From Patescibacteria group bacterium (GTDB lineage: Bacteria; Patescibacteriota; Doudnabacteria; UBA920; O2-02-FULL-48-8), in the NCBI GenBank assembly GCA_036394315.1, contig DASWFI010000007.1:3984-67983 (forward strand): a stretch of 64,000 nucleotides of DNA. The letters are read 5' to 3'. The translations under genes and the position numbers were made by a program. Under the pieces are notes generated by a model, which saw only the letters and a program-made list of their open reading frames with translations, was not told the origin of the DNA and did not search any database. This document shows, piece by piece, positions 20,438 to 48,487 of this stretch (position 1 is its first letter; every line of letters begins with the position of its first letter).

Positions 20438-21898
20438 TCATTCATTAGAATTTTTCAATTCTTTCTTAAGTAACTCATTTATTTTTTGTGGATTCCCTTT
20501 GCCTTTCAGCTCTTTCATAGTCTGGCCGACGAGAAAGCCAAAAGACTTTTCGCCTTTTGTTTTTGCATCCTCGACTCCCTTAGGATTTGCAGCTATTACT
20601 TTCTTCACCGCTTCTAAAATTACACTTTCGTCCGAAACCTGATGCAAACCAAGCTCGTCCAAAATATTGGATGGATCTTCTCCAGTCACAAACATTTTCG
20701 CAAACACGTCTTTGGCCGCTAAGTTAGAAACTTTCCCCTCCCCGATCAGTTTGATCAGCTCGGCGAAACTCTCAGCGGTAACTTTTGATTGTTCGGGCAA
20801 TAAATTTTTCTCATTGATCGCGGCCAGAAACGGACCCAAAATCCAGCCTGCGACCATGGAACCTCGTTTTTGATCTGATTTAGTCCATTCCGCCAATTCA
20901 CTCATAACCTGCTCAAAATAGACTGAAAGCTCTTTGTAAGACACCAAGGTCTGCGATTCTTTTTCGTTCAACCCATATTCGTCCATGAACCGCGCCTTTC
21001 GTACTTTTGGCAATTCCGGCAATTGTTTTCGCAATTCCTCCAGCCATCCTTTCGTAAAATGCATGACGGGCAGATCCGGTTCCGGGAAATATCGGTAATC
21101 CTGGGATTCTTCTTTTGATCGCTGCGAGACGGTGATTGATTTATCATCGACCCAGCCCCGGGTTTCTTTGTCAGGAATTTTTCCTTCGTCCAAAAGTTCG
21201 GACTGGCGCGTAATTTCAAACTCGATCGCATTCGCCACGGCTCGAAAAGAATTCATATTTTTAACCTCCACCTTGTATGGTGGGAATCCTGTTTCGCCTT
21301 TTTTGCGCAAACTGATGTTCGCATCACAGCGCAAATGACCTTTTTCCATATCCGCATCTGACACGCCTAAATAGCGCATAATATTCTGTAATTCTTGTAG
21401 ATACTGCTTCGCTTCTTCCGAAGATCTGATGTCCGGTTCACTGACAATTTCCAGTAATGGCGTGCCGGCGCGATTCAGATCAACCAAACTAAAACCCTTC
21501 GCGTGAACCAACTTGCCCGCGTCTTCTTCCAGATGTGCCCTTGTAATTCCGATTTTTCTCACTTCACCGCCGATCACGACTTCCATCACCCCTTTGCCGT
21601 TGATGGGGTGGTCGAACTGCGAGATCTGATAGCCTTTCGGCAAATCGGGATAAAAATAATTTTTCCGGTCAAATTTCGAATATTCGGCAATTTCGCAATT
21701 CAATGCCAAACCAACCATGACGGATTTAAGCACTGCTTCGCGATTGATCACAGGCAAGGTTCCTGGCTGGCCAGTGCAGACCTCGCAAATATGCACGTTT
21801 GGCACCTGGCTTTCGGCATTTTTGCTCGAGCAAAACATTTTGCTCTGAGTTTTTAGCTGGACATGGACTTCAAGTCCTATAACTGGTTCGTAGGTCAT
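20438..21898 (-). CDS. gatB: Asp/Glu-tRNA(Asn/Gln) amidotransferase subunit B
   Basis: MTYEPVIGLEVHVQL... GatB/GatE N-terminus and a C-terminal GatB-YqeY domain. Confidence 0.95.
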   Translation of the reverse strand: MTYEPVIGLEVHVQLKTQSKMFCSSKNAESQVPNVHICEVCTGQPGTLPVINREAVLKSVMVGLALNCEIAEYSKFDRKNYFYPDLPKGYQISQFDHPINGKGVMEVVIGGEVRKIGITRAHLEEDAGKLVHAKGFSLVDLNRAGTPLLEIVSEPDIRSSEEAKQYLQELQNIMRYLGVSDADMEKGHLRCDANISLRKKGETGFPPYKVEVKNMNSFRAVANAIEFEITRQSELLDEGKIPDKETRGWVDDKSITVSQRSKEESQDYRYFPEPDLPVMHFTKGWLEELRKQLPELPKVRKARFMDEYGLNEKESQTLVSYKELSVYFEQVMSELAEWTKSDQKRGSMVAGWILGPFLAAINEKNLLPEQSKVTAESFAELIKLIGEGKVSNLAAKDVFAKMFVTGEDPSNILDELGLHQVSDESVILEAVKKVIAANPKGVEDAKTKGEKSFGFLVGQTMKELKGKGNPQKINELLKKELKNSNE

Positions 21899-22320
21899 GG
21901 ATTTGTGCTACGGATCCTGCTCGGCGATGTGGTTTGAGGAGAACTGTTTATTCCCTCTAAGGATTTAAGATTAAAATTTACTAAATCAGGATTAATCTCG
22001 TTTAAAAGCAAATAAGCACAGAAGAGAATCACAACTCCGATCAAGGCGCCTGTGATATATTCTTTTCCTTTGGTAGCTTGTTCTGCATTGCCAGCCGCAG
22101 TCATAAGATAATATCCACCCAACACCATCATCAGAAGAGCGAGCAATACTGCAACACCTAGCGACCAGACATAAATTTGGTTAATGCATCGCGGCAAAGC
22201 GCTGGCTTTATCTGCACTCCCCTGCACTGCGGACACGGTGCACGGATTAGTTTGAGCTATTGCTAACAGAGGAGCAAAGGCCATAGTAAAAATAAAAATA
22301 AATAATATTAATTTTTTCAT
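21895..22320 (-). CDS. Small secreted or membrane protein (signal peptide plus 2 TM; TrbC/VirB2-like topology) inserted between gatA and gatB
   Basis: MKKLILFIFIFTMAFAPLLAIAQ signal sequence, then two hydrophobic helices; 141 aa. Confidence 0.45.
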   Translation of the reverse strand: MKKLILFIFIFTMAFAPLLAIAQTNPCTVSAVQGSADKASALPRCINQIYVWSLGVAVLLALLMMVLGGYYLMTAAGNAEQATKGKEYITGALIGVVILFCAYLLLNEINPDLVNFNLKSLEGINSSPQTTSPSRIRSTNP

Positions 22321-34665: not shown

Positions 34666-34863
34666 ATGCCCCAGCCGGAACTCAGCCGCAAGCAGCGCAA
34701 GCAACTGGCCAACTTCAAGAGCGAGATGGCTCACCAGGGCGTGCACAACCGTGTGCAGTTCGATGCCTTCGTTAAGAAGATGAAGCCGGAGGAATACACG
34801 CGCATTGCGGGGCTGATTCCACACGCATTCCCATCTCCGCAATCGGCGGCTCGCGCATCGTAA
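34666..34863 (+). CDS. Small hypothetical protein on a GC-rich (~55%) islet with a perfect AGGAGG SD
   Basis: ATG at 34666 lies 8 nt after AGGAGG. The islet's GC is far above the window background. Confidence 0.45.
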   Translation: MPQPELSRKQRKQLANFKSEMAHQGVHNRVQFDAFVKKMKPEEYTRIAGLIPHAFPSPQSAARAS

Positions 34864-34947
34864 GATCAACGTCGGAGGAGTCGTGGACATTCGCCCACCC
34901 TGACTAACACTACTGTAACCCACTCCAACATCAATTCCGACCACAGT

Positions 34948-35241
34948 ATGGAGACAGTAGTGGATACATTCGAACTTCGTCCTTCCGTCAAAGCGGTCGT
35001 TCAGAACGACCTTCTCTCCCAGAACCTCAAACAAGGAACAGAGGTGACGCTCGGTCGAGCCAGTCTCAGCGGCGCGCTTGCGAAAATCGAAGGCAGCAAC
35101 AAGTACGACGTGATTGCTGAATTCGATGCCGAAGCCGTCGAGGAAATAAAGAAGCAGGCAAAGGAAGCGCGCAAGATGGCCGCTATGTACTGCAGCGAGC
35201 CTGTGGTCCGTCGTCGTCCGAACATGCAACGCGTCTGGTAG
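34948..35241 (+). CDS. Small hypothetical protein on the same GC-rich islet
   Basis: 97 aa, protein-like composition; the antisense ORF 34660-35229 looks like low-complexity noise. Confidence 0.4.
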   Translation: METVVDTFELRPSVKAVVQNDLLSQNLKQGTEVTLGRASLSGALAKIEGSNKYDVIAEFDAEAVEEIKKQAKEARKMAAMYCSEPVVRRRPNMQRVW

Positions 35242-35534
35242 TCTACGCCGACCTTTAAAAGCCTGAGAGACAGATCCGGGGAAGGAACTGTCATTCTGCC
35301 TTTTAGACTTTTAACGGTGTTGCTCTAGGGTGAGAGAACGACCTTGCCTACCGGATCCAGACAGTTCCGGTAAGGAATCGACTCAGTACCCGCGGGGCAG
35401 CCTGGGTGCTCTTTCCCAGAGAGTCACCCAGCATTTTCACGCCAGTGGATCGCATCGATCCCTGGCTCTTTTTTTTGAGAATTATTTAGTAGTTACAGCA
35501 ATTCCGCCCTTTTGTCTGCACAATGGTGGCAAAA

Positions 35535-36548
35535 TCATTTACTAATCATGTATAACTTATTGTCTCGGCTGTCGGTGTAATAAATCGTATTACCGATAAG
35601 CATTACATTTTTTGATTGCACTTCGGAAGTTGGTTCAAAATAACTTTCAGATTTACCATTGCTCAAATTCAATTTTATGAACGTATCTCCGGATTTATCA
35701 GACTTGGGCACGGCGGCATAAAAAATTTTTCCAGATGCATCGGCCGTGATTTTATCTAGAGCCGTGTTTAAATTCAAATCAATAGCCAACTTATTTAAAA
35801 CATCAAATAAATAGATCTTGGAATTTTGAGCGTACAGAAACATATTCCCTACGGGAAGCCATAATACGCCGGTGTTCTTCCCAGTGTCTACCAAGGTGCT
35901 CATGGCACCGGAGTCCAGATTGGTCGCGTAAATTTTATTGGTATCACCCTCAATTTTGGAGCGATACATTAAGATAGTTTTACCGTCGGGCGAAGCTTTT
36001 AGGATCAAATCCGGCCAGAATAATGGTGCGATAATTTTGTATCCGGAGCCGTCAGCATTGGCCCTCACCAGCTGTTGAGATTTTTTGTCCGAGGCTTGCC
36101 AGACGTAAACCACCCGTTTGCCATCAGGGAGCCACTCTATCCACTGCACATTGTCCGCTAAGTTGATAAAAAACTTGTTGGCACTGTCGAAATAATCTTT
36201 ATAAAATTTATTGCCATCAACGGCAAAAGATATGAAATCGGATCCTTGCTTGGGCCAAATAACACTCCGTAGCTTGCCATTCGGCAATGGTGGCAGTGGA
36301 AATTCTGAAATATTAGTGCCGTCGGTATTGACCTTAAACAGACGCCCATCAGCATTAAAATACCAAATGGAGTTATTATCAAAAGCCCCGACTGGAGAAA
36401 TTACGGCTTCATCCAAAATTTTCTTTATGGAAGGAGGGCTCTGGGTATAAGTATTTGTTTTCTGTGACTGTTTTTTCGCATAAAATAAAACCCCGCCGAT
36501 TATCAGCAATATTATCACCCCTATGATTATAAGATTTCGTTTATTCAT
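35535..36548 (-). CDS. Membrane-anchored beta-rich hypothetical protein (possible beta-propeller), last gene of the T4SS-like operon
   Basis: N-terminal TM (IIGVIILLIIGGVLFY) followed by repetitive beta-strand-like segments. Confidence 0.45.
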   Translation of the reverse strand: MNKRNLIIIGVIILLIIGGVLFYAKKQSQKTNTYTQSPPSIKKILDEAVISPVGAFDNNSIWYFNADGRLFKVNTDGTNISEFPLPPLPNGKLRSVIWPKQGSDFISFAVDGNKFYKDYFDSANKFFINLADNVQWIEWLPDGKRVVYVWQASDKKSQQLVRANADGSGYKIIAPLFWPDLILKASPDGKTILMYRSKIEGDTNKIYATNLDSGAMSTLVDTGKNTGVLWLPVGNMFLYAQNSKIYLFDVLNKLAIDLNLNTALDKITADASGKIFYAAVPKSDKSGDTFIKLNLSNGKSESYFEPTSEVQSKNVMLIGNTIYYTDSRDNKLYMISK

Positions 36549-36551
36549 ATT

Positions 36552-37844
36552 TTAATAAGGCATATAATATTCACTGGGATTTGTAAACGCTTGAAGTTCT
36601 CCTTGTCTGCCTACACAATTCGGATCACTGGATAATCCCATATGCACATGGGCTCCGCTGGCTCGATCTGACGGCCGCCTGTATTCATCCTGGATGTATC
36701 CAAAGCCAGCTGAGCGTCCAAGAGATACCAGGGCGTCAATCCGAGCTGCATCGGCGGGCGAAGGATTTCTAGGGTCACCCACCGGAGGAATAAGCACAAA
36801 GTCGGTTGCCTCTCCTAGCATATGACAGCTATAAGCATAATTATGCGGGGCAGCGCAGTTTGGCTGCCGTAGGGCACTGGTGACCACAAAATTAATACCA
36901 GCACTGCTCTTGTTTGCAAAAACCTTATTTACTAAATCCAATTGCGCTTGTTTTACTCTTGGAAAATCACAGATCGATACTCCAAAATTATAGGAACTAA
37001 TATATGCTTGAGGGATATCAGCTAATAAACTATAACCTCCTGATGTTCCTCCGCCCCCGCTCCTGCTGGGGACTTGGGTATCAGCCGCTGAACAAAAATC
37101 TCCCCGGATCGCTGTTATAGTCGTACCAATATTAAAAGGTAAGAAATGAGCAGCTATTGCGGCTTTACCACTAGCATCGCCACAAGCAGCCCAATACCCT
37201 GAATAAATTATAACAATGAACACCAGGGGGATGATTGCGACTATAAGATTTGCAAAAAGCAAAGCTATCTGCTGGAACAGGTTCATCCGGCCAAAGATCT
37301 TGGAGCCAAATTTGGACATTATCCAATGAAAATCCAGATAGAGAAGAGCTATGGCCGCAGGGATTAACGAAACAATAGTTGGCGAAAGGATAATATCGAG
37401 TGTTAAAAAGCCAAAAGCGAACCAAAGAATAAAAGTGCTCCACGCACTTTTTGCAACTCCGCCTACGCCTTCTCCACGTAATGCCCCGGCCACAGCACCA
37501 GCAAGAGCCGCTTCTGACCCTGCTCCAAGGCTTGCTGCCTTTTCGGCGAACTTACCAGCGCTCTGACCAGCAGCTGCCTGCTTCGCAGCTCTGACTTTAG
37601 CAGAATTTATAGCATACCCAGCAAATTTTTTACCATACTTATCAGCTGCATCGGTATTAGCCAGTCCGCCACTACCTGCGAGATTGCCTCCTTCATTTAA
37701 TAAACCTGCAAATTCTTCATTACCAGATTTCTTAGCAAAATTTTCACCTAATCTAGCAGCTTTTTGGAGTCTTTGTCTTCTTTGCTGCTGCTTTAAACTG
37801 GCGAGTTCCTCTGCATTTTCCAGTTCCTCATCCAATGTTGGCAT
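36552..37844 (-). CDS. Membrane protein with a C-terminal peptidase M15 (VanY/D-Ala-D-Ala carboxypeptidase-like) cell-wall hydrolase domain
   Basis: Ala/Gly-rich N-terminus, about 4 TM helices, and a C-terminal H-x6-D (SCHMLGEATDF) plus HVHMG zinc-ligand pattern of M15 peptidases. Confidence 0.6.
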   Translation of the reverse strand: MPTLDEELENAEELASLKQQQRRQRLQKAARLGENFAKKSGNEEFAGLLNEGGNLAGSGGLANTDAADKYGKKFAGYAINSAKVRAAKQAAAGQSAGKFAEKAASLGAGSEAALAGAVAGALRGEGVGGVAKSAWSTFILWFAFGFLTLDIILSPTIVSLIPAAIALLYLDFHWIMSKFGSKIFGRMNLFQQIALLFANLIVAIIPLVFIVIIYSGYWAACGDASGKAAIAAHFLPFNIGTTITAIRGDFCSAADTQVPSRSGGGGTSGGYSLLADIPQAYISSYNFGVSICDFPRVKQAQLDLVNKVFANKSSAGINFVVTSALRQPNCAAPHNYAYSCHMLGEATDFVLIPPVGDPRNPSPADAARIDALVSLGRSAGFGYIQDEYRRPSDRASGAHVHMGLSSDPNCVGRQGELQAFTNPSEYYMPY

Positions 37845-37846
37845 AA

Positions 37847-39676
37847 CTATTCGTTGTTATTACGTTGCGCCTGCAGTTGTTTTTTTGCTTCCTCGATTTC
37901 CAGAGCGCGTTTGGGGTCAGTGGTAATAATCTGATCTTCCATATATGAAGCTATAATCTTGATCGCGACATGCTTGAGTCCAGCGAAGAAAATTCCTTCA
38001 CCCACATCAGATTCCAGGAGCAGATACTTCTCCCCTTCGGTGAGGTGGAAGGTTTCGGTGATTAGATCAATCGAAGTTGGCGACTGCTTGAGCAACATTT
38101 GAATCGAAGAATTATTTACGATCGGCGCCCCGTACGGCGATTTCAAAAAATCACCGACATCCTGAGTAATTGTAGTTACCCCCAGATAATATTTTCTCGC
38201 ACGTTTGGCGATATTCGATAAGAATAAAGCTGAGTCGTCGCGCTGCATCATCCACCAAGCTTCATCGATCACTAAAATCCGCTTCTTCAGAGACGAGCGT
38301 ACCACGTTCCAGATGTAACTCAGCGTAACATAGATCGCAATCGGCCTCAGCTGATCTTCCAAATCCCGCACTGAAAATACCACCAACTGGTTATTTAAAT
38401 TAATATTGGTCCGCTGATTAAAAATCCCTGAGAAAGTTCCTTGAGTGTATTTGGTCAGGCGCTGCGCCAGACTCTCGCCACCCACCATCCCTCCTAAAAT
38501 TTCCACCAAATCCTGCATGATTGGCGGTTCGACATTGCTTAAATTGGAATTCGCGGTAATATCTTTTTTAGCGTAAGTTTCCCAGAGTGCCCGATCCATT
38601 ATGGATTCTTCAGTGGGATCCAGCTTACCTAACATCAAATTCATAAGTCCCAAAAGACTGACCACGGCAGCGCGTAAAATATCTTCGTTGGACTCCCCTT
38701 CGATCGCACGTGGCAGATCAAACGGATTGACCCTTGAATCGGAATTCAGCGAGATATTCAGAAAAGTCCCGCCTACAGCGTTGGAGAGATGCTGGTATTC
38801 GTTTTCCGGATCTATAACGATGACATCCGTGCCCAACATAAGAGAACGCAAAATTTCAAGCTTGACCGCATAACTTTTGCCGCTGCCCGATTTGGCAAAC
38901 ACCACGGAGTTGGCATTTTCCATCTGAAACCGGTCAAACAATATCAACCCATTATTGTGGCGGTTGATTCCATAGAGTATGCCGTCGTTGGAAGTAAGCT
39001 CTGAGGAAACAAAAGGAAAAGTCGTGGACAGAGGTTCCGTATTCATATTCGTGGCAATAGCCAGTTCGTCGTTCCCCAAAGGCAATGTGGAATTAAAACC
39101 TTGCTCCATCTGCAGTATGGCAGGCTTGGCCATGATCAGCTTGGAACCCAAAATTGATTCCAAAGTAGCTGAGGTCTGATCCAGTTCTTTTTGTTCGTTG
39201 GCGTAGATCGTGAAATACACTGAAAATCGGAAATATCTTTCAGTGCCCTGCTGCAATCTGTCCCGCAGGCCCTCGATATCCTGCAGGGCGGTCTCCATCA
39301 TCGGATCGCGGACGTTTCCTTTTTCCTGGCCCATGCGCATGGAAGATTCGACTTGTCCGACTTTATTTCGCAGTTTTTTCATTATCTCCTCAGTATCCAT
39401 TGGGTATATAAACATCGACATGTCCATGGGTACATCGAGACTAATGATCGGAGCCAGCCAGTCCACGGAAATAAACCGCGGATAAGAAAGGACGAAAAAT
39501 GTCCGGGCCAGTTTACCCGAAACTTCCACGGAATTTTGAGTAACGCGAAAAGCTGAAGGCGCGATCAAATCACGCAGAGTGTTCAATCCTTTTTTGTACT
39601 CACGCTCTTTTTCTACCAGCTGCCTTTGCAGCTCGCGTTGAGGATCCAATTGTTGATTTACCTTAAATAATGCCAT
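37847..39676 (-). CDS. VirB4/TrbE/TraC-family type IV secretion ATPase
   Basis: Walker A VVFAKSGSGKSY and Walker B RILVIDEAWWMM; size and motif spacing fit the VirB4 C-terminal ATPase domain. Confidence 0.8.
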   Translation of the reverse strand: MALFKVNQQLDPQRELQRQLVEKEREYKKGLNTLRDLIAPSAFRVTQNSVEVSGKLARTFFVLSYPRFISVDWLAPIISLDVPMDMSMFIYPMDTEEIMKKLRNKVGQVESSMRMGQEKGNVRDPMMETALQDIEGLRDRLQQGTERYFRFSVYFTIYANEQKELDQTSATLESILGSKLIMAKPAILQMEQGFNSTLPLGNDELAIATNMNTEPLSTTFPFVSSELTSNDGILYGINRHNNGLILFDRFQMENANSVVFAKSGSGKSYAVKLEILRSLMLGTDVIVIDPENEYQHLSNAVGGTFLNISLNSDSRVNPFDLPRAIEGESNEDILRAAVVSLLGLMNLMLGKLDPTEESIMDRALWETYAKKDITANSNLSNVEPPIMQDLVEILGGMVGGESLAQRLTKYTQGTFSGIFNQRTNINLNNQLVVFSVRDLEDQLRPIAIYVTLSYIWNVVRSSLKKRILVIDEAWWMMQRDDSALFLSNIAKRARKYYLGVTTITQDVGDFLKSPYGAPIVNNSSIQMLLKQSPTSIDLITETFHLTEGEKYLLLESDVGEGIFFAGLKHVAIKIIASYMEDQIITTDPKRALEIEEAKKQLQAQRNNNE

Positions 39677-39683
39677 AGCAATA

Positions 39684-40379
39684 TTATTCTCTAGCTATAT
39701 CGAGCTCGTCTATACTTTTAATTTTTATCGGAGATGCTGTATCCAGGTTGTAGCTGTTGTAAACTAGTTCTATCAATTCTTCGGTGTTAAGCGCGATAGT
39801 TTTTAATCCCATTTGAGCCAAGCCGGTGGTTACTTGATTGACTCTCTTAAGTAATTCTTCGCGCGCTTTTTCGAAATCCCGGTTTTTGATAGATATTTCC
39901 TTAGCGGGATTAAACAAATTGGTAAACTTTTCAAAAAATCCTTTTTTAACAGCGCCCGTGCCTAGAGGAATAATAACGTAAAAAGTTTTATTCATAATAC
40001 TGGCAAACTCAATCAGCTTCTCTATGTACTCGACATATTCCTGGGTCTGCATCCGGAGCAGTTCATTTGTCTGCTGCTGCATCACTCCCCGCAATTTATC
40101 CAAATAAGAATTAATATCTAGCTTCCTTGATTGCATTAAAATCTGAATGGAAAATTCCAGAGCATTCAGAAAATTTTGATAAGATCCGATGAGAGCATTT
40201 TGCTCCTCCGCGCTTTTAAGAGAAAAGTTGGTAGATGATACTGCCAACACCGCACGCAACGAACCATCTCGCAGGACCATCGTGGCTTCTTTGATCTCTT
40301 GAATATCCAAATACGCCTGCGTGGACGCAGTGGGTTTGTTGCCAGACATGGAGTTAGATTGCATTTCTTGCTTTGCCAT
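39684..40379 (-). CDS. Hypothetical protein immediately upstream of VirB4 (possibly a separately encoded VirB4 N-terminal domain)
   Basis: 231 aa soluble protein, 8 nt from the VirB4 start. VirB4 here is about 200 aa shorter than typical. Confidence 0.4.
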   Translation of the reverse strand: MAKQEMQSNSMSGNKPTASTQAYLDIQEIKEATMVLRDGSLRAVLAVSSTNFSLKSAEEQNALIGSYQNFLNALEFSIQILMQSRKLDINSYLDKLRGVMQQQTNELLRMQTQEYVEYIEKLIEFASIMNKTFYVIIPLGTGAVKKGFFEKFTNLFNPAKEISIKNRDFEKAREELLKRVNQVTTGLAQMGLKTIALNTEELIELVYNSYNLDTASPIKIKSIDELDIARE

Positions 40380-40822
40380 TATGATTTTTGTTCTAACAGC
40401 TTTTTTTCCTCTTCCGTTTTCTGGTCCAGGAGATAAGCCAGTTTTTTCAAACGGCTTTCGTTCGGTTCATCTAATTTATTCTTGGCCAAAACTATAGTTT
40501 CTGCTTTTTTTTCTGTCTTAAAAGACATGTTCACGCTGACATCCTCCCGCTTAAAAATCCTCACTTGGGGTCTTGATGTAAAAGCCACAAACACTCCAAT
40601 ATAACTGAAGAGTGGTCGGCCGTTAAATTTACCAAACGTAAGTCCTAACCCTAATAAGGAAGTAGGGATTGCAAAAAAGTAAAAGAAGATGGACAGCTTA
40701 AGCAGGGAGTAAAAAAACATGACTATGCCGCCGGTTGCTAGAATAATCAAAAACTGCTTTAAAGTCAGAGGGCCAATCAGTTTATCTTCGACTTCTGTGA
40801 ATTGTGGTACAGCGTATTGCAT
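40379..40822 (-). CDS. Small 2-TM membrane protein (VirB3/PrgI-like position and topology)
   Basis: 147 aa with two adjacent hydrophobic helices; translationally coupled to its neighbour. Confidence 0.45.
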   Translation of the reverse strand: MQYAVPQFTEVEDKLIGPLTLKQFLIILATGGIVMFFYSLLKLSIFFYFFAIPTSLLGLGLTFGKFNGRPLFSYIGVFVAFTSRPQVRIFKREDVSVNMSFKTEKKAETIVLAKNKLDEPNESRLKKLAYLLDQKTEEEKKLLEQKS

Positions 40823-40966
40823 TTGTTTTGAGGGTGATTTTGTTTCAAAAACTGTCTAAAACTTCTCAAACATTATACCACAAAAGATCAATCTAATCAA
40901 AAAAATCCTTACGTAGACACCCTAGAACCTTTCAAAGTCGGTCGGGAATGGGATACTCCGTATAAT

Positions 40967-41410
40967 CTAACGCACAAAGTTTCTCAGCCATTTAGCCCAC
41001 CCCTCTCCTTCATCCTCATAAATGCTCCAAAATTCAGCAGGCCGGACAATCTTAACGCCCTTGTATTTTTCTATCTTCAAAAGATGCCTATCAGAAGTGA
41101 TTAGATAATCAGCAAAGCTGGCCACAGCCGATTCCAAAATTTTATTATCTTCATTGTCTTCTTCCACCACACTCAGGCGTTGCGAATTGTTTACGGGTTT
41201 GATGGTATCGAAAAAGTACTCCAGTTTTTTTAAATATCCTTCATCAGAAATTTTTTTATTCGCCAAAAACTTATTTTCTCTCAATGTTGCTGTGTTGGCG
41301 TAAGCTTCTATTTGCCCGCCAATAACCAGATCAACTATCCGATTACTGTAATTATAAAAATCGGATGAGCCGTCAATAAGAAGATTTGTATCTATTACAA
41401 TTTTATACAT
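40967..41410 (-). CDS. PIN-domain nuclease (VapC-like) embedded in the T4SS-like operon
   Basis: MYKIVIDTNLLID...D...SDR: the acidic residues of the PIN fold are present; 147 aa. Confidence 0.65.
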   Translation of the reverse strand: MYKIVIDTNLLIDGSSDFYNYSNRIVDLVIGGQIEAYANTATLRENKFLANKKISDEGYLKKLEYFFDTIKPVNNSQRLSVVEEDNEDNKILESAVASFADYLITSDRHLLKIEKYKGVKIVRPAEFWSIYEDEGEGWAKWLRNFVR

Positions 41411-41512
41411 AAATGACTAATTACAAATTTCCAGGGACAAATAAATAATGCCCAATTTTCAACTTGGACATTATATCATTTTATTTGAAACTTGTAATTT
41501 GATATTCAATGC

Positions 41513-43111
41513 TTACAATCTTTGTATTTCTTTTCTCAAATCTGCTATGGCTTCAAATTCTTGTTTAGTCAAATCATTATTTGTTTCCACTCCTGAAAAT
41601 ATCGCTTGGCCGTGAGCCATATAGGATCGGAACAGCGGACTTTCTTCAAAAGCAGTCAAAGCATAATAAGGTATAACTCTATTTGAAAGCGCCAGATCCA
41701 CAATTTTTGTTTTCAAACGCTGAATTTGCTGATCCAATGGGCCTCGTCTCAAATGACTCAACATGATCTTTTTCAAATCATCCATATTTTTTATGTCTGA
41801 AAAGGTCGCCTCAAAAGTGGAAACCGGCCTGGTTATTTTCTCTGGTCCGATAGATGTCGAGTCGGATGACCGGACAGATGATGGAGCAATACTGGCCGGA
41901 GTTACTACTGGCATAGGTGTTTGGAGTATTATTGGTATAGCTGGAGCTACAGTTGCCACTGGGGCCGGTGGTTTAACTACGGGTGCAGACGGTGCAGTTA
42001 TAGCCTTAGGTGCCACATACCGAACTTGTTTCGGGATCTCTGTGTGGGGCGGCAATTCAGGCGTTGAAACCTCTCTCTTGATCTCAGAATTTATTTTATT
42101 CAAATCAGGGTTATTCTTAACCACGGGAGGGGGTATTGGCTTTACTTGCGCTTCCATTCGATGCTTCAAAACTTCTAAATCAGCTCCGTGCCCGGCCGGT
42201 GGAGGAGCAGAAACTTCAGCTAGTTTTTTCTCAAAGGCAGTAATTTCTTTAACCGCTTGCGGGGCGGAGGGTATGAGTGGTTTAGCCATTACAGATGTTG
42301 TAGGCTTAAATGTTGGCACTGAGGATAAAACTGGTTGTGGCTCAGGCCTTAGTGGTTTTGGAACTGGTGGTCGAGTAACGGAAACTGGCTTAGGTACTGG
42401 AATAGGTGCGGGTTGTAATGCTTCTTCCTTTTCTATTACGGGGACATAATTTGGATATTTTAACAAATTATAAATACCTAACACTGAAGACAACAATTGT
42501 TTATCGCCAGGACTCAATGTCTTAACATTTGGACTTGAATAAAAATATTGAGTCATTTGATAGCTGACCCCGCTTAAAGATTTGGGATCAATATAACCCA
42601 AGTAATCTTTAATCCAATTACCAAGGGTATTACGAACGCTCTCTCCGGTTTTTAAACTTACCTGTTGGGTACCGATAGTTTCCTCATTTTGTGCCAGAGC
42701 ACGGATGAGCTTTTGCCTTTCCTCAAAATCCGGCTCTGCTCCGAACTCAAATAGCCGCAAGTACTTCTGAAGGTAATCGATAACACTCGTATTGTTCTTC
42801 ATAGAAACCACTATAATTTCAGAAAGGGTCTGTTCCCGAAATTTATTACCCAACATCTGAAACGCTTGCCAGCCGAGTTTCATTTGAATTTTCTTAAGCC
42901 TGGTATAAATCTCTGTCCCGTTAATCACGCCGGCATATTTATCGACTAATGCACCCAAAGTTTCGTAAAGTTCCGCTCCCTGACCCGGCTCGTAATCATA
43001 CATCGGATCCGATGCCAGTTTTTCAATCAAACCCAAAACTTTCGGATCTTTTAATTGATCCGCTGTCAATCCATTCAAGCTCTCAACTGATAAATTATTC
43101 AGATCTGTCAT
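41513..43111 (-). CDS. Pro-rich hypothetical protein (two globular domains joined by a ~200 aa P/V/K-rich linker)
   Basis: 532 aa; the antisense Gly-rich ORF 41763-42449 is an artefact of the Pro codons. Confidence 0.5.
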   Translation of the reverse strand: MTDLNNLSVESLNGLTADQLKDPKVLGLIEKLASDPMYDYEPGQGAELYETLGALVDKYAGVINGTEIYTRLKKIQMKLGWQAFQMLGNKFREQTLSEIIVVSMKNNTSVIDYLQKYLRLFEFGAEPDFEERQKLIRALAQNEETIGTQQVSLKTGESVRNTLGNWIKDYLGYIDPKSLSGVSYQMTQYFYSSPNVKTLSPGDKQLLSSVLGIYNLLKYPNYVPVIEKEEALQPAPIPVPKPVSVTRPPVPKPLRPEPQPVLSSVPTFKPTTSVMAKPLIPSAPQAVKEITAFEKKLAEVSAPPPAGHGADLEVLKHRMEAQVKPIPPPVVKNNPDLNKINSEIKREVSTPELPPHTEIPKQVRYVAPKAITAPSAPVVKPPAPVATVAPAIPIILQTPMPVVTPASIAPSSVRSSDSTSIGPEKITRPVSTFEATFSDIKNMDDLKKIMLSHLRRGPLDQQIQRLKTKIVDLALSNRVIPYYALTAFEESPLFRSYMAHGQAIFSGVETNNDLTKQEFEAIADLRKEIQRL

Positions 43112-43114
43112 GTT

Positions 43115-45826
43115 TTAAATGGGATTACCTCTATCATCTGTAAGTATAACGCGAGGTGTTTCTGGTTCTGGAGCTCTACTCCTACCCCCTTCTCCACCGT
43201 CGCCTCCTCCACCTGAACGCGAACTTCTAACAGCCGCTTTAATTACTGTTTTATCTCCACTTGGATCAATATACTCAGTTGTATTGTCATAAGTCACGTT
43301 CCCAATTGTAATTTTAGGTCCTGTATATTTGATTCTGACATTTGTTAATTTATTTCGGAACTTTGTATCCATATTCAATTTTTCAGCATACATGGCTCGA
43401 ACCCCATCAGGTTTGACTTCCCAAGCTTCTTTGATTTTCCTCAATTCAAATGGGTCCCTAATTATCACTGCGCCGAAGTCATTACTGCTTTCGTCATCAA
43501 CCATTTCAGAAGTCAAAATACGATCTTTGGTTCTAATTTGAACATTTTGCATACGATTAATAACTTGATCTTCACTAAACTGATCATTAATCTTATGATA
43601 GTGTGCTTGCGAAGCTTTTGTAATATTCATAGGACCCCAAATAATTGACTGGATTTCCTTTTCTCCCGTGACTGGACTTCCATCCTTAGCGTAGCTAGTA
43701 ATAATCTTTCCAGTCTTTTTATCCACTCTCGCCAGTTGTGGTCGCAAAGCATGCGGTGCCGTAGCGATTATATCATTTGCTTTCTTTTTCTCCCATTCAC
43801 CCGCAGCATAGGATGCTTGATGAGTATTTTCCAGTTCATCAATGTTTTCTCCCAGCGCATTCTTAACTTTGTTACCCGTCTTTTTCATGCCCCACTCCCA
43901 TTTATTATTGTTTATATCAAAATAAGAATGTCCAAGATATTCAGCATGACCAGTATTCTTCCCTGCTTCTTCCATATCTTCTCCTACAAATCTCATAGCT
44001 TGTTCGCTATTACCCAAGAAACCTTTTAAGAATCTCTGAATTGAATCCGGACTACTTAAAAGGACAGCATCGTCTCCATTCTCATCTTTTACAACTTCAC
44101 CGTATTTGGCAGCAAAATGCTCCATTCTCAACACATCGTCCTGAAAACCATTTGACAGAGCAGCTTTCATAGCGGCAAGTCTGGTAGTTTCGCCTTCATG
44201 GCCGCCTATCTTCTCAGCCTCAACTAAATAGTTCATTAACTGTTCTTTCTTCATATCGATCAAATATTTCAACTTTTCGTTTTCAGCTCTTCTTTCAGCA
44301 AACTGCGCTCGAGGCAAATTAGTACCCGTAAATACTTTTTCTGCAACTTCTTGTCCTCTTGCTTCTGCAACTTCCTGCGCATGATGGGATAGTTCGTGAG
44401 ATCTTTTTTGAGCTCCTTTAAACGCTGCAACTGGATTGAGCACAGCAAATGCTGCTCTTCGGGTCCATCCAGGTTGCCCGCCATCATGCGGTTGCATTAT
44501 ATGCGAAGTTGCTTCATTCCACTTACGTCCTGCATATCCTCCAGCCATATGTGCTACGCCATGGCTAAACTTTTCTGCAGCTTGCACTACTGCTTTTCCA
44601 CCAACCATACCCGCGTGTTCGGCGACAATTACTGCTCCCCAAATAAATCCCATTAAGATAACATAATTAAAAGCTGAATCCGACGCTGTAAAAGATTTAT
44701 CTTTAGCTACCAACACAGCTAACTGCAACATAAACAAAGCTACCGGTGGCCAGATCAAATATTTGATAAAGTACTGCCACCATTCATGAGCATAATGTTT
44801 CGTAGCGGGTAATACATGCAGAGCATAAGCCAGTGGCGAAAAAATAACCAAAACGTACACGCCCACGATTCGTATAACAAATAATCCAGCTAATGCTAAA
44901 AAACTCGCCAGAGCAACAAAGGTGAAAACGATTTTGGTTATACCTTGGAATAATCCAGCCATCCAGCCGTTTGGCAGCGAACCCAAATCGCTAAAATTAA
45001 CATACCGATAAACAAAAGCCCATATTTCACCGTGATTGGTGCGGAAAACACTAGTCAAGACATTCACCGTATCAAGCAAGGTAGTAGCAATGACCATGCT
45101 AAAATTGACCAATAATGCCATCATTACAGTTTCTGCTAAAAGATGCCGATAATCATAACTTTCAATCCTAAGAATTGCCGCAAGGCCGATGACGATCAGA
45201 ATTAAAATAAAGAACATATTGCTAATATCACGCACAATTGTCCATCCTACAGCCACAAAGGCTGGCATAGTACCTGCTAAAATCCAGTTAACTGCAGTCG
45301 TGAAAATATCTCCGGCTAAAGCCGTCATCCATAAAAGAAAAGCATTCACTGCTGATAATACAAAATTTAAACTCCAACCAATTAACTTACTCGGCCATGC
45401 CGCTGCATTTTGAGCATTCATATCATCCAGATATGCTTTATAAATATCTTTAGATGAAAGTCCGCTTCCCTGCTCTATTCTATTTTGGAGATCATATGAA
45501 CCTGGCGGCTGCTCTACTCGGCCGGCTGAAGTTGCTGAGTATCCAAGATTCTGAGGAAGTATGGTACATCTGGTAATGTTGCCAGTTCGAGTAGGAGTAA
45601 TAACATATAAAGTAGTAAACCTTTTCCCAGTCGCATCTTCAATTTCTTTTCTAAGAGTACCTTCACAAATTGTCTGAGTTTTGTGTGCCTCACCCATTTT
45701 CTTGGCATCTATCTTTATGTCCTGACCTGGTGCTGCCGGCGCAGGCTGTTGGGCAAAAGCAAAATTAACCAGCAACAGGTTTGAGAGGACGAAAATTACG
45801 ATTAATTTTGTAAAATTTATTTTCAT
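43115..45826 (-). CDS. Large polytopic membrane protein with a signal peptide (VirB6/TrbL-like core) plus a ~480 aa C-terminal soluble domain
   Basis: 903 aa; cleavable N-terminal signal, about 6-7 TM helices at aa 130-400, and a C-terminal domain containing an HELSH (HExxH) motif. Confidence 0.55.
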   Translation of the reverse strand: MKINFTKLIVIFVLSNLLLVNFAFAQQPAPAAPGQDIKIDAKKMGEAHKTQTICEGTLRKEIEDATGKRFTTLYVITPTRTGNITRCTILPQNLGYSATSAGRVEQPPGSYDLQNRIEQGSGLSSKDIYKAYLDDMNAQNAAAWPSKLIGWSLNFVLSAVNAFLLWMTALAGDIFTTAVNWILAGTMPAFVAVGWTIVRDISNMFFILILIVIGLAAILRIESYDYRHLLAETVMMALLVNFSMVIATTLLDTVNVLTSVFRTNHGEIWAFVYRYVNFSDLGSLPNGWMAGLFQGITKIVFTFVALASFLALAGLFVIRIVGVYVLVIFSPLAYALHVLPATKHYAHEWWQYFIKYLIWPPVALFMLQLAVLVAKDKSFTASDSAFNYVILMGFIWGAVIVAEHAGMVGGKAVVQAAEKFSHGVAHMAGGYAGRKWNEATSHIMQPHDGGQPGWTRRAAFAVLNPVAAFKGAQKRSHELSHHAQEVAEARGQEVAEKVFTGTNLPRAQFAERRAENEKLKYLIDMKKEQLMNYLVEAEKIGGHEGETTRLAAMKAALSNGFQDDVLRMEHFAAKYGEVVKDENGDDAVLLSSPDSIQRFLKGFLGNSEQAMRFVGEDMEEAGKNTGHAEYLGHSYFDINNNKWEWGMKKTGNKVKNALGENIDELENTHQASYAAGEWEKKKANDIIATAPHALRPQLARVDKKTGKIITSYAKDGSPVTGEKEIQSIIWGPMNITKASQAHYHKINDQFSEDQVINRMQNVQIRTKDRILTSEMVDDESSNDFGAVIIRDPFELRKIKEAWEVKPDGVRAMYAEKLNMDTKFRNKLTNVRIKYTGPKITIGNVTYDNTTEYIDPSGDKTVIKAAVRSSRSGGGGDGGEGGRSRAPEPETPRVILTDDRGNPI

Positions 45827-45859
45827 GTGAGCTTAAAGTCTACTAATTTATTGCAATGT

Positions 45860-47245
45860 CTATGGTGATCCCGGTGGTTGAGGTGGCGGGAATCCCGAAG
45901 GAGGTGGACCAGCAGGAGGGAGGGTGCCTCCGCTATTTAGAATAGTGGCTGACCCAATACAATTATTGGGAGGAGTACCACCGAAGATACAATGATCAAT
46001 AATGCCAGTGCCGGAATAACTTACAGCGTCCGCGATACCATCGCCATCAATATCAATATCACCTGGGGACAATTGACCTGGGGCGGGCGTCGTCGCATTC
46101 GGATCACCATAGTCAGTACCAGCATAAACATTAGGGCTGTCTGTCAAAACCCCACCAGTTTTATCTAACCCCAGTTGATTCCAAATAAATTTTCCGAAAG
46201 ATTTGCCGACTTGTGTCCAAAAATCCGTAGAAGGATTATATAAATTGTTGAAATGCTGGCTGATAGCAGCATCCAAATTCTTTTCAATAAATGCAGTTGG
46301 ATTATCGATAAATGACCTGGCTTGATCCACCAGTGAAGCTTGCCATTCCCCTCCTCCGGCCTTGCATGCTGCAGGAGACGTATTAGGGTCAGCTACCGCT
46401 TGCGCCGAAGCAACTTTGATAATACCTAGTTTGTTTAATATGGAGGCTAAAGGGCTCAGCATATTTGGATTATAAGCTCCGCCGGGAGGTGTTGGAAGAG
46501 GCACAACAGTGCCAGGCAATTGTCCTGGTGGAATACCCGGAGTAACTTGATTTGATGGAATTCCTCCTTTACAGCTTCCGCCGATAATTCTTCCGTTCTT
46601 AATCCCCTTGCCCGCCAAAATTTCCAACTGTGAGGCGGAGGTGGCAGAGGATTGGAAAGCGCCGAATTCGCCTTGCAGATTTTGTTCCGTAAAGCTTGGC
46701 GGATTGGAGAAGTAAGCTTGGGCTGCTGCAAAGTATTCCCGATCAGAATTGAAGCTGGATGGATTATAAATTTTCTGCGGATCAATCCCGCCTCTATTAG
46801 TGTATGCCTTATTGATGGCTTTATTTAATCTCGGAATCAATGCTTTGCTCGGATTAATCCCCCCAGTAGTGCCTGTGGGTTGTCCCGTTATAGCAGCCCG
46901 CTCCATTAAAGAATAAACATCTCTTAAATCCGGATCAGTAATATTATCAGCGATATATCGATTCAAATAATAATCCGTCAGTACCCTATCGTAATAAAGG
47001 TAGTTACGGATTTTATACTTATCTACCAATTTATTGGTAAATCGTGTAAGAAATTGTTCTGTGAATCTTTCCAAAACGCCGCGAGCAATACCAATCCCAA
47101 TACGCTCCGCAACCCAACGTATATCAATAGTTGGAAACACTGCCTGCGCTGTTTTTGGAGCAATCAATATACCACCCGTAACTTGAGTGGCTATCAGGAT
47201 TGCGAGAATCGCTCCGGTAATTAATTTAGAAAGTTTGGCTTTCAT
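45860..47245 (-). CDS. Secreted Gly/Pro-rich hypothetical protein
   Basis: Signal peptide MKAKLSKLITGAILAILIATQVTGG and a C-terminal PPAGPPPSGFPPPQPPGSP tail. Confidence 0.5.
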   Translation of the reverse strand: MKAKLSKLITGAILAILIATQVTGGILIAPKTAQAVFPTIDIRWVAERIGIGIARGVLERFTEQFLTRFTNKLVDKYKIRNYLYYDRVLTDYYLNRYIADNITDPDLRDVYSLMERAAITGQPTGTTGGINPSKALIPRLNKAINKAYTNRGGIDPQKIYNPSSFNSDREYFAAAQAYFSNPPSFTEQNLQGEFGAFQSSATSASQLEILAGKGIKNGRIIGGSCKGGIPSNQVTPGIPPGQLPGTVVPLPTPPGGAYNPNMLSPLASILNKLGIIKVASAQAVADPNTSPAACKAGGGEWQASLVDQARSFIDNPTAFIEKNLDAAISQHFNNLYNPSTDFWTQVGKSFGKFIWNQLGLDKTGGVLTDSPNVYAGTDYGDPNATTPAPGQLSPGDIDIDGDGIADAVSYSGTGIIDHCIFGGTPPNNCIGSATILNSGGTLPPAGPPPSGFPPPQPPGSP

Positions 47246-47246
47246 T

Positions 47247-48179
47247 TTAGTTCAATCGTTTGATTTTTTCTTTTTCAATAGCGATTTTTTGAAGTAAGAC
47301 AAAATACGCCTGCGCGTCATCGTACCAAAGATTATTCGCACTGGTGTCAGTTCCCAAAGAAGCCGCGTCCGGCATGCTCACGACTTTCGGAATCAACTGC
47401 ACCAAGCCGATGAAATATTTATGAAGCTGTGCCGTGCTTGGTGGTGTGGGCAAAGCCTTTAGATCAATAGATAATTTCAGAGCGCGGATTTTAATCTCGT
47501 CGATCTGATCTATGTTTCCAGTCTTTGCGGCAGATTTGAGAGTTTGCTCAACGTCGAAATTAAAATATTTTTGCGCAGCCAGATTTAATTTATTAAGGTA
47601 ATCCGTCCGCGCTTCCTTCGAATCGTCTTTCGATACGATGATCTCCTCGGTTTTGACTTCCGGCAATTTTATTTTTGATGAATCAGTCATGTCGTTGATC
47701 AGCTGCTTGACCGAACTATCAAAAACCAAACTCTCTCCCAGTATACTTTCGTCGGTAACGACCTGATCAAAAGGGACTTTTCCTGGTTTACTCGGATCCA
47801 AATTATTTGCCACCATCTGGCCGTCGGTCATGCCATTGTTATTTGAGTCTGGGTTGAGCGGATCCGTATGATAAAAATATTCCTGGGCATTGGTAAGCCC
47901 ATCGTGATCAGGATCGGCATCCGGCCTGCAGTTATCCTGATTACAGACGCTTGTGCCAAAATATTTTTGCAGCCACCACCCTGGAAGTTCTGAATTCGAA
48001 ACAGCCGTCGTGGTACTACTGACAGTCGTTTTATTTTTTGGCTTTATACTCAAATATACGCTAGTGGCAAGAATAAAAATAAGTAAAGCAAATACAAAAT
48101 TTTTCTTTCTGAAAAAATTGTTTTTTCGCTTTACTTCAAAACTTCCGGACTCTTTTTTTTTGTTTTTGTTTCTAAACAT
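47247..48179 (-). CDS. Membrane-anchored protein with thrombospondin type 3-like Ca-binding repeats (DPDHDGLTNAQE..DPLNPDSNNNGMTDGQ); first gene of the operon
   Basis: Lys-rich N-terminus, one TM helix, and a DxDxDG-type motif. Confidence 0.5.
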   Translation of the reverse strand: MFRNKNKKKESGSFEVKRKNNFFRKKNFVFALLIFILATSVYLSIKPKNKTTVSSTTTAVSNSELPGWWLQKYFGTSVCNQDNCRPDADPDHDGLTNAQEYFYHTDPLNPDSNNNGMTDGQMVANNLDPSKPGKVPFDQVVTDESILGESLVFDSSVKQLINDMTDSSKIKLPEVKTEEIIVSKDDSKEARTDYLNKLNLAAQKYFNFDVEQTLKSAAKTGNIDQIDEIKIRALKLSIDLKALPTPPSTAQLHKYFIGLVQLIPKVVSMPDAASLGTDTSANNLWYDDAQAYFVLLQKIAIEKEKIKRLN

Positions 48180-48221
48180 CGGATTTAATTAGCCAAGGCT
48201 CGGGCCCAAGATTAAAACGGC

Positions 48222-48241
48222 CACCATATAACCATATGGTG
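48222..48241. promoter_or_regulatory. Perfect inverted repeat CACCATAT-aacc-ATATGGTG in the leader of the T4SS-like operon (candidate operator)
   Basis: 8 bp arms and a 4 nt spacer, between the predicted TSS (~48384) and the first ATG (48179). Confidence 0.5.
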
Positions 48242-48390
48242 AACAAAGTGATTGGTCGCTTTATGTATTCTCTCAAACATACCGGATTGATTGGCCATAA
48301 AGAAAAACAGGTCTGCCCTCTTCCCTCATTGGCCTTTATTTCTCTCGTTAATTTTTATTTTTTGTTTCTAAAACCACTTAACTTAAATAT

Positions 48391-48419
48391 ATTATAGCAC
48401 AAAACTCCAACCTTTGCAA
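48391..48419 (-). promoter_or_regulatory. Consensus sigma-70 promoter driving the T4SS-like operon
   Basis: Minus strand reads TTGCAA-aggttggagttttgtgc(17)-TATAAT. Confidence 0.6.
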
Positions 48420-48487
48420 GGGCTGGAGTAAATTTCTAATTACTATTCGACCAAATTTCTAAATAATCTTACAATCGTAATCCAAGT

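Follow-up and report, generated by a model that had tools for sequence, protein, structure and literature searches.

We have studied a run of ten genes on one strand of a 64,000-nt stretch of Patescibacteria DNA (contig DASWFI010000007.1), the whole of which is termed the window. We conclude that the cluster very probably encodes a chromosomal, non-conjugative type IV secretion system (T4SS) of Candidatus Doudnabacteria, derived from conjugation machinery of the MPF-FATA/CD1110-like kind. An initial annotation of this DNA had proposed a chromosomal, non-conjugative T4SS-like machine for host interaction in an ultra-small episymbiont. That proposal is borne out by a true VirB4 ATPase, by conserved gene order, housekeeping flanks and relatives within the Patescibacteria, and by published parallels (PMC12102498, PMC10633639, PMC12857230).

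The ten open reading frames (ORFs), of 147-903 aa and numbered 1-10 in the order of transcription, all lie on the minus strand and span positions 35535-48179 (Table 1). Eight gene junctions have gaps of -1 to 33 nt; the gene for a PIN nuclease is set apart from its neighbours by wider spacers, of 102 and 144 nt. The run is thus tightly packed on a single strand, as previously described, save for the two spacers around PIN. The earlier descriptions of transmembrane (TM) helices, signal peptides, and Pro-rich and Gly/Pro-rich proteins were also upheld on re-examination. The initial annotation had counted twelve genes; we find ten, and no further credible small ORF in the gaps of the cluster. It had also taken most of the components to lack a recognizable family, which was too pessimistic. 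On sequence grounds six or seven of the ten genes can be assigned to families, and only genes 1, 2 and 4 stay without one.

Table 1. Genes and transcription signals of the T4SS locus, with positions in the window
Feature	Size (aa)	Position	Strand	Description
Gene 1, anchored surface protein	310	47247..48179	(-)	TM 27-45, helical C-terminal region
Gene 2, secreted Gly/Pro-rich protein	461	45860..47245	(-)	signal peptide, DIDGDG motif
Gene 3, putative 'extended' VirB6/TrbL-like channel subunit	903	43115..45826	(-)	orthologue matches and topology
Gene 4, cytoplasmic Pro-rich protein	532	41513..43111	(-)	no TM
Gene 5, PIN-domain nuclease	147	40967..41410	(-)	PF13470 (PIN_3), intact acidic active site
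Gene 6, PrgI family / VirB3-like	147	40379..40822	(-)	PF12666 and two TM helices
Gene 7, TrsD-like protein	231	39684..40379	(-)	resembles VirB4 N-terminal domain
Gene 8, VirB4 ATPase	609	37847..39676	(-)	monoderm CD1110 / MPF-FATA type by hidden Markov model (HMM)
Gene 9, predicted membrane-anchored LAS/M15 peptidoglycan peptidase	430	36552..37844	(-)	C-terminal zinc-peptidase motif
Gene 10, N-terminally anchored PD40/TolB-like beta-propeller	337	35535..36548	(-)	last cluster gene
VirB2-like T4SS pilin	141	21895..22320	(-)	PF18895 T4SS_pilin 44 bits, cutoff 26.6
Putative promoter, first unit		48391..48419	(-)	-35 TTGCAA, 17-nt spacer, extended -10 TGCTATAAT
Hairpin at -35		48404..48429	(-)	9-bp stem and UUUU, -35 hexamer in loop
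Putative terminator after gene 4		41474..41445	(-)	hairpin and U-run, overlaps PIN promoter-like site
PIN promoter-like site		41498..41470	(-)	ATTACA-17-TGATATAAT
Putative core-unit promoter (prgI-trsD-virB4-hydrolase-propeller)		40872..40900	(-)	TTGATT-17-TGGTATAAT

The VirB4 core and the proteins encoded with it

The product of gene 8 matches the NCBIfam model NF045971 (CD1110 family) with 374 bits (cutoff 325) and E = 1e-111, aligning with positions 180-733 of the 752-position model. Further HMM matches are to PF19044, PF12846 and PF01935, and to TIGR02746 at 6e-61. The protein has Walker A (AKSGSGKS) and Walker B (ILVIDE) motifs. The initial annotation had called it a VirB4-like ATPase on the strength of its Walker motifs; with a score above the curated NF045971 cutoff it is a true VirB4, and the alternative of a P-loop protein from outside the VirB4 family fails. 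The scores against the models of the archaeal proteins CedB and CedD are 41 bits (cutoff 700) and 20 bits, respectively.

Relatives of the locus were collected by a scan of one genome per species. This gave 559 relatives of VirB4, and the best 80 of the 559 were kept as loci. The counts given below are over these best 80 of 559, and many of the absences are due to the ends of contigs.

Gene 8 lacks the N-terminal ~180 residues of a full-length VirB4. The protein encoded by gene 7, 7 nt upstream, matches positions 97-234 of the NCBIfam model VirB4_plasma (Mbov_0397) at 9e-11, positions 15-119 of the CD1110 model, and TrsD at 8.6e-5, all with scores below the curated cutoffs. It is also 29% identical (E = 1e-30) to the product of the ORF upstream of virB4 in a Pontibacillus module discussed below. 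Since gene 7 matches the N-terminal regions of VirB4 proteins, a protein resembling the N-terminal domain is encoded separately here, the VirB4 itself being without that region. Gene 7 had previously been described as VirB4-adjacent; the adjacency stands, and the protein can now be called TrsD-like, a putative homologue of the VirB4 N-terminus. We considered and rejected the splitting of one virB4 gene by a frameshift, as TrsD and VirB4 are separate ORFs in 80/80 species and in Pontibacillus. Gene 6 is located two genes upstream of virB4. It encodes TM helices at 25-43 and 45-63 and matches PrgI (PF12666) with 31.2 bits (cutoff 27), confirming the earlier suggestion of a VirB3-like protein with two TM helices.

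The large product of gene 3 begins with a signal peptide; about seven TM helices follow at 153-402, the C-terminal half is large, hydrophilic and variable, and the conserved core comprises residues ~145-440. The TrbL/VirB6 family PF04610 is matched by 28 of the 44 syntenic orthologues, with a best E of 2e-8, and the gene 3 family aligns with a 779-aa protein of the Pontibacillus T4SS-like module (hhalign, 93%). A direct search of PDB sequences with gene 3 returned noise only. Because 28 of 44 orthologues match TrbL/VirB6, gene 3 probably encodes an 'extended' VirB6, in keeping with the initial description of a polytopic VirB6/TrbL-like protein of 903 aa.

Gene 9 encodes a low-complexity N-terminus, a TM module with a conserved Cys pair, and a C-terminal LAS/M15 domain. 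The profile of the full-length protein was swamped by the low-complexity N-terminus, and the C-terminal domain was therefore profiled separately. The motif of this domain is R..SxHxxGEAxD ... HxH; alignments of 12 and of 24 sequences show no variation at R, S, H, G, A, D and H-x-H. The zinc ligands of LAS/M15 enzymes are found as H-x(3-6)-D and H-x-H within a scaffold SxHxxGxAxD ... HxH, and gene 9 has this arrangement. In PDB the domain profile finds LAS-fold proteins only: M15C, LysB4, VanY, ChiX, the hedgehog N-domain and the L-Ala-D-Glu peptidase of phage Ply500. The last of these (2vo9) is matched at E = 0.0047, and its catalytic His and Asp coincide with those of gene 9 in the alignment. 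A direct sequence search of PDB with gene 9 gave noise only. Of the 24 members of the family, 13 match VanY weakly and 13 match Peptidase_M15_3; the E values against VanY, M15_3 and M15_4 are 4e-4 to 4e-3, and no member reaches the Pfam threshold. Within this limit, the invariant catalytic motif and the restriction of PDB matches to LAS folds speak for the M15-peptidase lytic enzyme first proposed for this gene. The family is rare, with 37 representative clusters in 1.84 billion proteins. A homologue search of the sequence database gave three matches with the full-length protein and none with the C-terminal domain alone, and a single-sequence AlphaFold2 (AF2) prediction of the domain had a pLDDT of 35, too low to be of use.

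In other relatives the gene that follows virB4 keeps the TM/Cys module and carries other domains, where these are recognizable. Among 35 other loci we find SLT in two and PASTA in two, the rest being mostly without a recognizable domain. The retention of the TM/Cys module with differing domains suggests that the position after virB4 is a modular 'wall-hydrolase slot' subject to domain swapping.

Another possible wall hydrolase of the T4SS, besides gene 9, is an M23-family peptidase with two LysM domains, encoded at 51837-53012 (+), 3.7 kb upstream of the cluster; the 2025 survey cited below notes VirB1-like proteins of Patescibacteria that bear M23/LysM domains.

The cluster closes with gene 10. 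The initial annotation had described a beta-rich anchored protein, and this can be made more specific. With a TM helix at 6-24, the protein matches two Pfam families above their cutoffs, PF16472 (DUF5050; 27.7 bits, cutoff 27) and PF07676 (PD40; 25.5 bits, cutoff 20.9), together with the TolB propeller at 5e-6.

The pilin gene lies apart from these genes. It encodes a signal peptide and two TM helices, and is located 13.6 kb from the cluster between gatA (22317-23768) and gatB (20438-21898), overlapping each by 4 nt. The order gatC-gatA-pilin-gatB is also found on a metagenome contig from JGI (L081). In four more distant relatives (L047, L067, L073 and L076) homologues of the pilin are encoded within the T4SS flanks. 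As they adjoin T4SS genes there, we regard the protein as the natural candidate for the pilin of this T4SS. Its co-transcription with an essential tRNA-amidotransferase operon is odd.

The identification of gene 5 as a PIN nuclease is secure, with matches to PF13470 at 1e-14 (55.7 bits, cutoff 27) and to TIGR00305 at 5.5e-10 (39.6 bits, cutoff 29.15). In 13 species with 54-76% identity, residues D7, E45, D88 and D107 do not vary. The two flanking gaps contain no ORF of 40 aa or more that could encode an antitoxin. PIN is confined to 12/80 loci, those with VirB4 most similar to that of the window, and it would seem to be a lineage-specific resident of the cluster.

Three proteins are left without a family. 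Gene 1 contains one calcium-binding DxDxDG repeat resembling thrombospondin type 3, and matches PF18884 (TSP3_bac) below its cutoff, at E = 2.4e-4. HMM searches of Pfam and NCBIfam gave no match for gene 2, whose homologues are confined to close relatives, nor for gene 4. The product of gene 4 comprises a helical N-domain (10-220), a disordered Pro-rich linker of ~210 residues and a small C-terminal helical bundle. A search of the sequence database for its homologues gave seven matches. An AF2 model from a seven-sequence alignment has a mean pLDDT of 58, with 80-90 in the N-domain; compared with PDB by Foldseek it gave nothing below E = 1, generic helical repeats only, and the gene 4 profile found no relative in PDB.

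Conservation in relatives and comparison with known systems

All of the best 80 loci are on contigs of metagenome-assembled genomes. Their VirB4 proteins have 61-88% identity; most are labelled Patescibacteria, and the closest are labelled Candidatus Doudnabacteria. The recurrent gene order is VirB6-like, (gene 4), (PIN), PrgI, TrsD, VirB4, (hydrolase), propeller and a convergent recG. TrsD and VirB4 are present in 80/80 loci, PrgI in 76, the VirB6-like gene in 62, the propeller in 57-59 and recG in 50. Gene 4 is present in 36-45 of the 80, gene 1 in 14-15 and gene 2 in 8-9. The initial annotation had put forward conserved co-occurrence as a check on its proposal, and the same gene order is indeed seen in up to 80 related species-level genomes. 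Near-identical loci of the Patescibacteria type also occur under the names Verrucomicrobiia, Acidobacteriaceae, Methylomirabilota and Gammaproteobacteria (L008, L020, L037, L075, L078 and L080), labels that are probably the result of binning contamination.

The surroundings of the cluster are those of a housekeeping region. On its upstream side are rsmA/ksgA, uvrD/pcrA, the M23 peptidase with LysM domains, recO, the isoleucyl- and arginyl-tRNA synthetases (IleRS and ArgRS), smpB and tmRNA; downstream are the convergent recG, tRNAs, an ECF sigma factor, clpB, recX, gatCAB, miaA, the threonyl-tRNA synthetase and dnaE. Among the ORFs of the 64-kb window (all ORFs of 480 aa or more) there is no relaxase, integrase, VirD4/TcpA coupling protein or VirB11, in agreement with what had been stated before, and neither an origin of transfer (oriT) nor a replication module was found in the window. 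The G+C content of the cluster is 0.39-0.47, the same as that of the remaining window, and we saw no integrase, att-like repeat or shift in composition at the cluster.

T4SSs of this nature have been described in the Patescibacteria. A survey found VirB4 in 2,417 of 3,035 genomes, forming a monophyletic clade nested in MPF-FATA, with TrsD, PrgI/VirB3, VirB6 and VirB2-like pilins encoded near virB4 and relaxases rare; ksgA was a common neighbour of virB4, as was recG in ABY1, and VirB8 was rarely found outside the class ABY1 (Quinonero-Coronel 2025 Microb Genom, PMC12102498). The unusual T4SS of Southlakia epibionticum resembles those of Gram-positive bacteria, includes pilins and lacks both relaxase and coupling protein (Wang 2023 Cell, PMC10633639); it is essential for the epibiotic growth of this organism (PMC10633639; PMC12857230). 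With these systems (PMC12102498; SEML1_0006-0019, PMC10633639) the present locus shares a chromosomal, relaxase-less character and a VirB4 of MPF-FATA ancestry; TrsD and PrgI/VirB3 directly upstream of virB4, VirB6 further upstream and a peptidase directly after it; VirB2-like pilins in the genome; and the neighbours ksgA (rsmA) and recG, which are found in several classes. It differs from them in three ways. There is one pilin gene in the window, at a distance inside gatCAB, rather than an array in the cluster; a PIN nuclease gene is inserted between the halves of the cluster; and the closing gene encodes an anchored PD40 beta-propeller, as it does in most of the relatives. In its main text, supplements aside, the 2025 survey (PMC12102498) never uses the words 'PIN', 'propeller', 'TolB' or 'Doudnabacteria'. 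The locus adds no new kind of system, and matches the published Patescibacteria T4SS in every respect tested.

The likely origin of the machinery can be seen by comparison with conjugative MPF-FATA T4SSs of monoderm bacteria, i.e., CTn2 of Clostridioides difficile (CD1110), pGO1 (TrsC/TrsD/TrsE) and pCF10 (PrgH/PrgI/PrgJ). Common to both are a VirB4 scoring above the CD1110 cutoff, PrgI, TrsD, a VirB6/PrgH-like polytopic protein and a wall hydrolase, without an outer-membrane core (VirB7/9/10). The locus differs in its fixed chromosomal position, in its hydrolase, LAS/M15 here and SLT plus CHAP in the conjugative systems, and in that the window yielded no relaxase, coupling protein, oriT or PrgB adhesin. 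The best plasmid VirB4 proteins, of CD1110 type and from Bacillota or Actinomycetota, are just 29-36% identical to gene 8. A VirB2-like pilin is present here, whereas Gram-positive systems are without one (PMC12857230).

A closer look-alike is found on an 898-kb non-mobilizable replicon of Pontibacillus sp. ALD_SL1 (NZ_CP062975, 351-361 kb). This T4SS-like module encodes, in the same order, a pilin-like protein, a large polytopic protein, a small ORF, a TrsD-like protein, a VirB4 of ~620 aa (36% identity) and a 1050-aa hydrolase annotated as a peptidoglycan DD-metalloendopeptidase, and it likewise has no relaxase nearby. Pontibacillus differs in belonging to the Bacillota and in not being an episymbiont; chemotaxis and flagellar genes flank its module, which has no counterpart of PIN, the propeller or genes 1, 2 and 4. 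BLAST shows no similarity between PrgI and the 116-aa product of the small ORF before the TrsD-like gene. With ComB of Helicobacter pylori and the archaeal Ced system (CedB) the locus shares a VirB4-family ATPase without relaxase or coupling protein, and the company of recombination genes. It differs in the low CedB and CedD scores given above, and no component specific to ComB or Ced was found.

A number of points weigh against our assignment of the locus to the Patescibacteria T4SSs. Genes for a relaxase or coupling protein could be present beyond the 64-kb window. No VirB8-like bitopic subunit of NTF2 fold was matched by HMM among the ten proteins; a divergent VirB8 fold may exist among genes 1, 2 and 10. 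The window copies of genes 3 and 9, taken alone, have no Pfam match. Genes 1, 2 and 4, three out of ten, lack an assignment, and no similar structure was found for gene 4. The pilin gene, lying at a distance, is tied to the cluster by circumstantial evidence. Membership of the published Patescibacteria VirB4 clade is consistent with the ranking of identities, on which it was judged, and the functional roles throughout are drawn from homology.

Possible function and alternative explanations

If the assignment to a Patescibacteria T4SS is correct, VirB4 would be the motor, with an N-domain-like partner provided in trans by TrsD and a tether provided by PrgI/VirB3. By analogy with characterized T4SSs, VirB6 would be the membrane translocon. 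The gene 9 peptidase is predicted to cut the peptide stems of peptidoglycan locally, so that the apparatus may cross the wall, and the VirB2-type pilin would be supplied from its gene inside gatCAB. Lineage-specific additions to this set are the PIN nuclease, the cytoplasmic Pro-rich protein, the propeller with its anchor, and a pair of surface proteins that are anchored or secreted. Such an assembly might form an envelope-spanning conduit at the site of host contact, probably bearing a pilus or tube, through which macromolecules could move without a relaxase.

According to reviews, what the Patescibacteria T4SS does is 'completely unknown', and proposals extend to the delivery of effectors or the uptake of nucleotides (PMC11665869, PMC12857230); host-RNA feeding with T4SS-like tubes has been described in a cultivated relative (2026 preprint, bioRxiv 10.64898/2026.06.21.733656). 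Our own preference is a tentative one for the uptake of host macromolecules (nucleic acid); the export of effector proteins is somewhat less likely, and a role confined to a pilus or adhesion less likely again.

A machine for effector export proper, in which proteins are injected into the host bacterium or released onto it, so as to subvert or lyse it, and genes 1, 2, 4 or PIN provide the cargo or adaptors, is possible but doubtful. Export is the usual direction of a T4SS, and effector delivery has been speculated upon in print (PMC11665869, PMC10633639). Several of the cluster proteins are lineage-specific and evolve fast, as effectors and adhesins do, with 31-52% identity where VirB4 is 88% identical, and the orphan PIN nuclease could be a toxin effector. 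However, most effector-translocating T4SSs need VirD4, and none is linked to the cluster; recognizable effector domains or secretion signals were not found; and the products of genes 1 and 2, being provided with Sec-type signals or anchors, need no T4SS. We consider it unlikely that the locus encodes an inward-directed T4SS like ComB or Ced that imports host DNA or RNA for nucleotide salvage or recombination, with PIN processing the polymer. The lack of a coupling protein or relaxase in the window would fit import, as would the retention in the cluster of PIN with an invariant active site in 13 species, and nucleotide acquisition by T4SSs has been raised in the literature (PMC11665869), as has the host-RNA feeding in the preprint noted above. 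Yet PIN is not core, being in 12/80 loci only, and PIN_3/TIGR00305 proteins are usually the toxins of toxin-antitoxin pairs. The weak match of VirB4 to CedB (41 bits) is far under the 700-bit cutoff. The convergent recG in 50/80 loci and the nearby uvrD/pcrA, recO and recX would also fit, but such neighbours may be no more than the consequence of a compact genome (roughly 1 Mb), and there is no linked DNA-binding channel component such as ComEC or ComEA. A still more specific proposal, which we regard as improbable, is that the T4SS of this Doudnabacteria subclade is a nucleic-acid feeding device: a VirB4/VirB6 channel and a VirB2 tube would import host RNA or DNA, the antitoxin-less PIN would process the polymer, and RecG, UvrD and RecO would handle DNA. 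If this were true, the anchored beta-propeller encoded after the wall peptidase would be a previously unrecognized structural part of monoderm-type T4SSs.

Two further explanations would remove the machine or divide it. The ancestry of VirB4, PrgI and TrsD is conjugative (CD1110/pGO1-like), and relaxase and coupling protein are missing, as they are in degraded integrative conjugative elements (ICEs). A decayed or domesticated ICE remnant without a working machine is nevertheless hardly credible. All the ORFs are intact, VirB4 is strongly conserved across the 80 species with its Walker motifs kept, the order and the position beside recG and rsmA are conserved, the cluster bears none of the marks of integration or foreign composition that were looked for, and a homologous system is essential in a cultured relative (PMC10633639). 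We rejected the ICE hypothesis on the grounds of the intact genes, the strong conservation, the fixed chromosomal position and the housekeeping flanks. It is also very unlikely that the cluster consists of two unrelated adjoining modules, genes 1-4 forming an operon for surface proteins and genes 6-10 a minimal VirB3/TrsD/VirB4 unit, with a terminator and a mobile PIN gene between them. The terminator after gene 4, the independent promoters and the presence of genes 1 and 2 in only 8-15 of the 80 loci could be read in that way. But gene 3, on the upstream side, encodes the VirB6-like subunit that a T4SS needs and accompanies the core in the same order in 62/80 loci, and the order from the VirB6-like gene to virB4 is found in Pontibacillus too.

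The Patescibacteria T4SS is near-universal in a phylum that holds a large share of bacterial diversity, and is essential in the one species tested. The locus studied here is a clean and complete example from Doudnabacteria, in which promoters and terminators have been located. It includes a hydrolase slot occupied by a rare LAS/M15 family, a conserved propeller, and a PIN nuclease restricted to a subclade. PIN, the propeller and the hydrolase slot are concrete handles for asking what the machine moves, and the look-alike module of Pontibacillus offers a cultivable organism in which to study the shared core.

Transcription signals and neighbouring sequences

The initial annotation had placed the whole cluster behind one consensus promoter, TTGCAA-17-TATAAT. 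The site itself is well supported: 10 of 12 positions match the consensus, the -10 element is extended by TG, and the TTTTGTGCTATAAT core is also found upstream of gene 1 in L001, L004 and L007. That it is the only promoter does not hold. The element TGNTATAAT, the promoter type of this organism, occurs 13 times in the window where 2.6 are expected (a 5-fold excess), mostly before operons, and is present in all three sizeable gaps of the cluster, at 48391, 41470 and 40872. The TTTGTGGTATAAT element before prgI is nearly invariant in seven species, the rest of the spacers being unalignable. After gene 4 there is a terminator-like hairpin of -13.5 kcal/mol (z = -4.0, 0/200 shuffles), and a hairpin with a T-run is present at this position in 8/8 species compared. 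The spacer between gene 4 and PIN is a hot spot for small inserted genes. Given promoters in all three gaps and a conserved terminator after gene 4, the cluster is best read as about three putative transcription units, genes 1-4, PIN and genes 6-10, from three extended -10 promoters.

An inverted repeat at the first promoter had been taken for an operator. It forms a hairpin of -14 kcal/mol (z = -2.7) located 59 nt past the stop codon of rsmA, and in the L004 copy the pairing is kept through at least five two-sided (compensatory) changes. Because pairing is maintained despite the changes in sequence, and UUUU follows the stem, the hairpin is most likely an intrinsic terminator of rsmA acting in RNA, not an operator recognized by a protein. 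A second hairpin of 9 bp (UCACCAUAUGG..UAUAUGGUGG) at 48242..48221 (-), in the region 48212-48248, lies ~40 nt before the start of gene 1, in a leader of ~200 nt; it is not conserved in relatives, and an Rfam search of 48100-48520 gave no match. In some close relatives a gene for a signal-anchored protein of 124 aa lies between the promoter and gene 1, and in some relatives a 59-aa helix-turn-helix protein of the MerR/excisionase type is encoded just upstream; both are absent from the window. These extra upstream genes were seen at 543-917 of L001, at 686-1060 and 507-686 of L007, and at the 5' ends of L005 and L012. We rejected a derivation of the leader, by decay, from the 124-aa gene which L001 and L007 carry before gene 1, tblastn having found nothing.

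The sequence GAAACAAAA occurs 12 times, against 2.5 expected (including 48360-48368, 48164-48172, 40838-40846 and 2453-2461). Copies recur 25-30 nt past the extended -10 boxes or immediately ahead of start codons, and relatives keep the sequence before prgI. In this lineage it may serve as an element of the leader or of translation initiation.

At the other end of the cluster, ~960 nt (34576-35534) separate the stop codons of recG and the propeller gene, which are 29 nt apart in L001. This spacer has a slightly higher G+C content and contains plus-strand ORFs at 34636-34863 (75 aa) and 34948-35241 (97 aa), the second with a weak match to NYN_YacP (5e-4). Searching 34500-35600 against Rfam gave a chance-level match only. 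On the upstream side, the IleRS (1123 aa, 55375-58746 (-)) carries a His_Phos_1 domain (1.9e-40) at residues 495-651, inserted between the halves of its catalytic domain.

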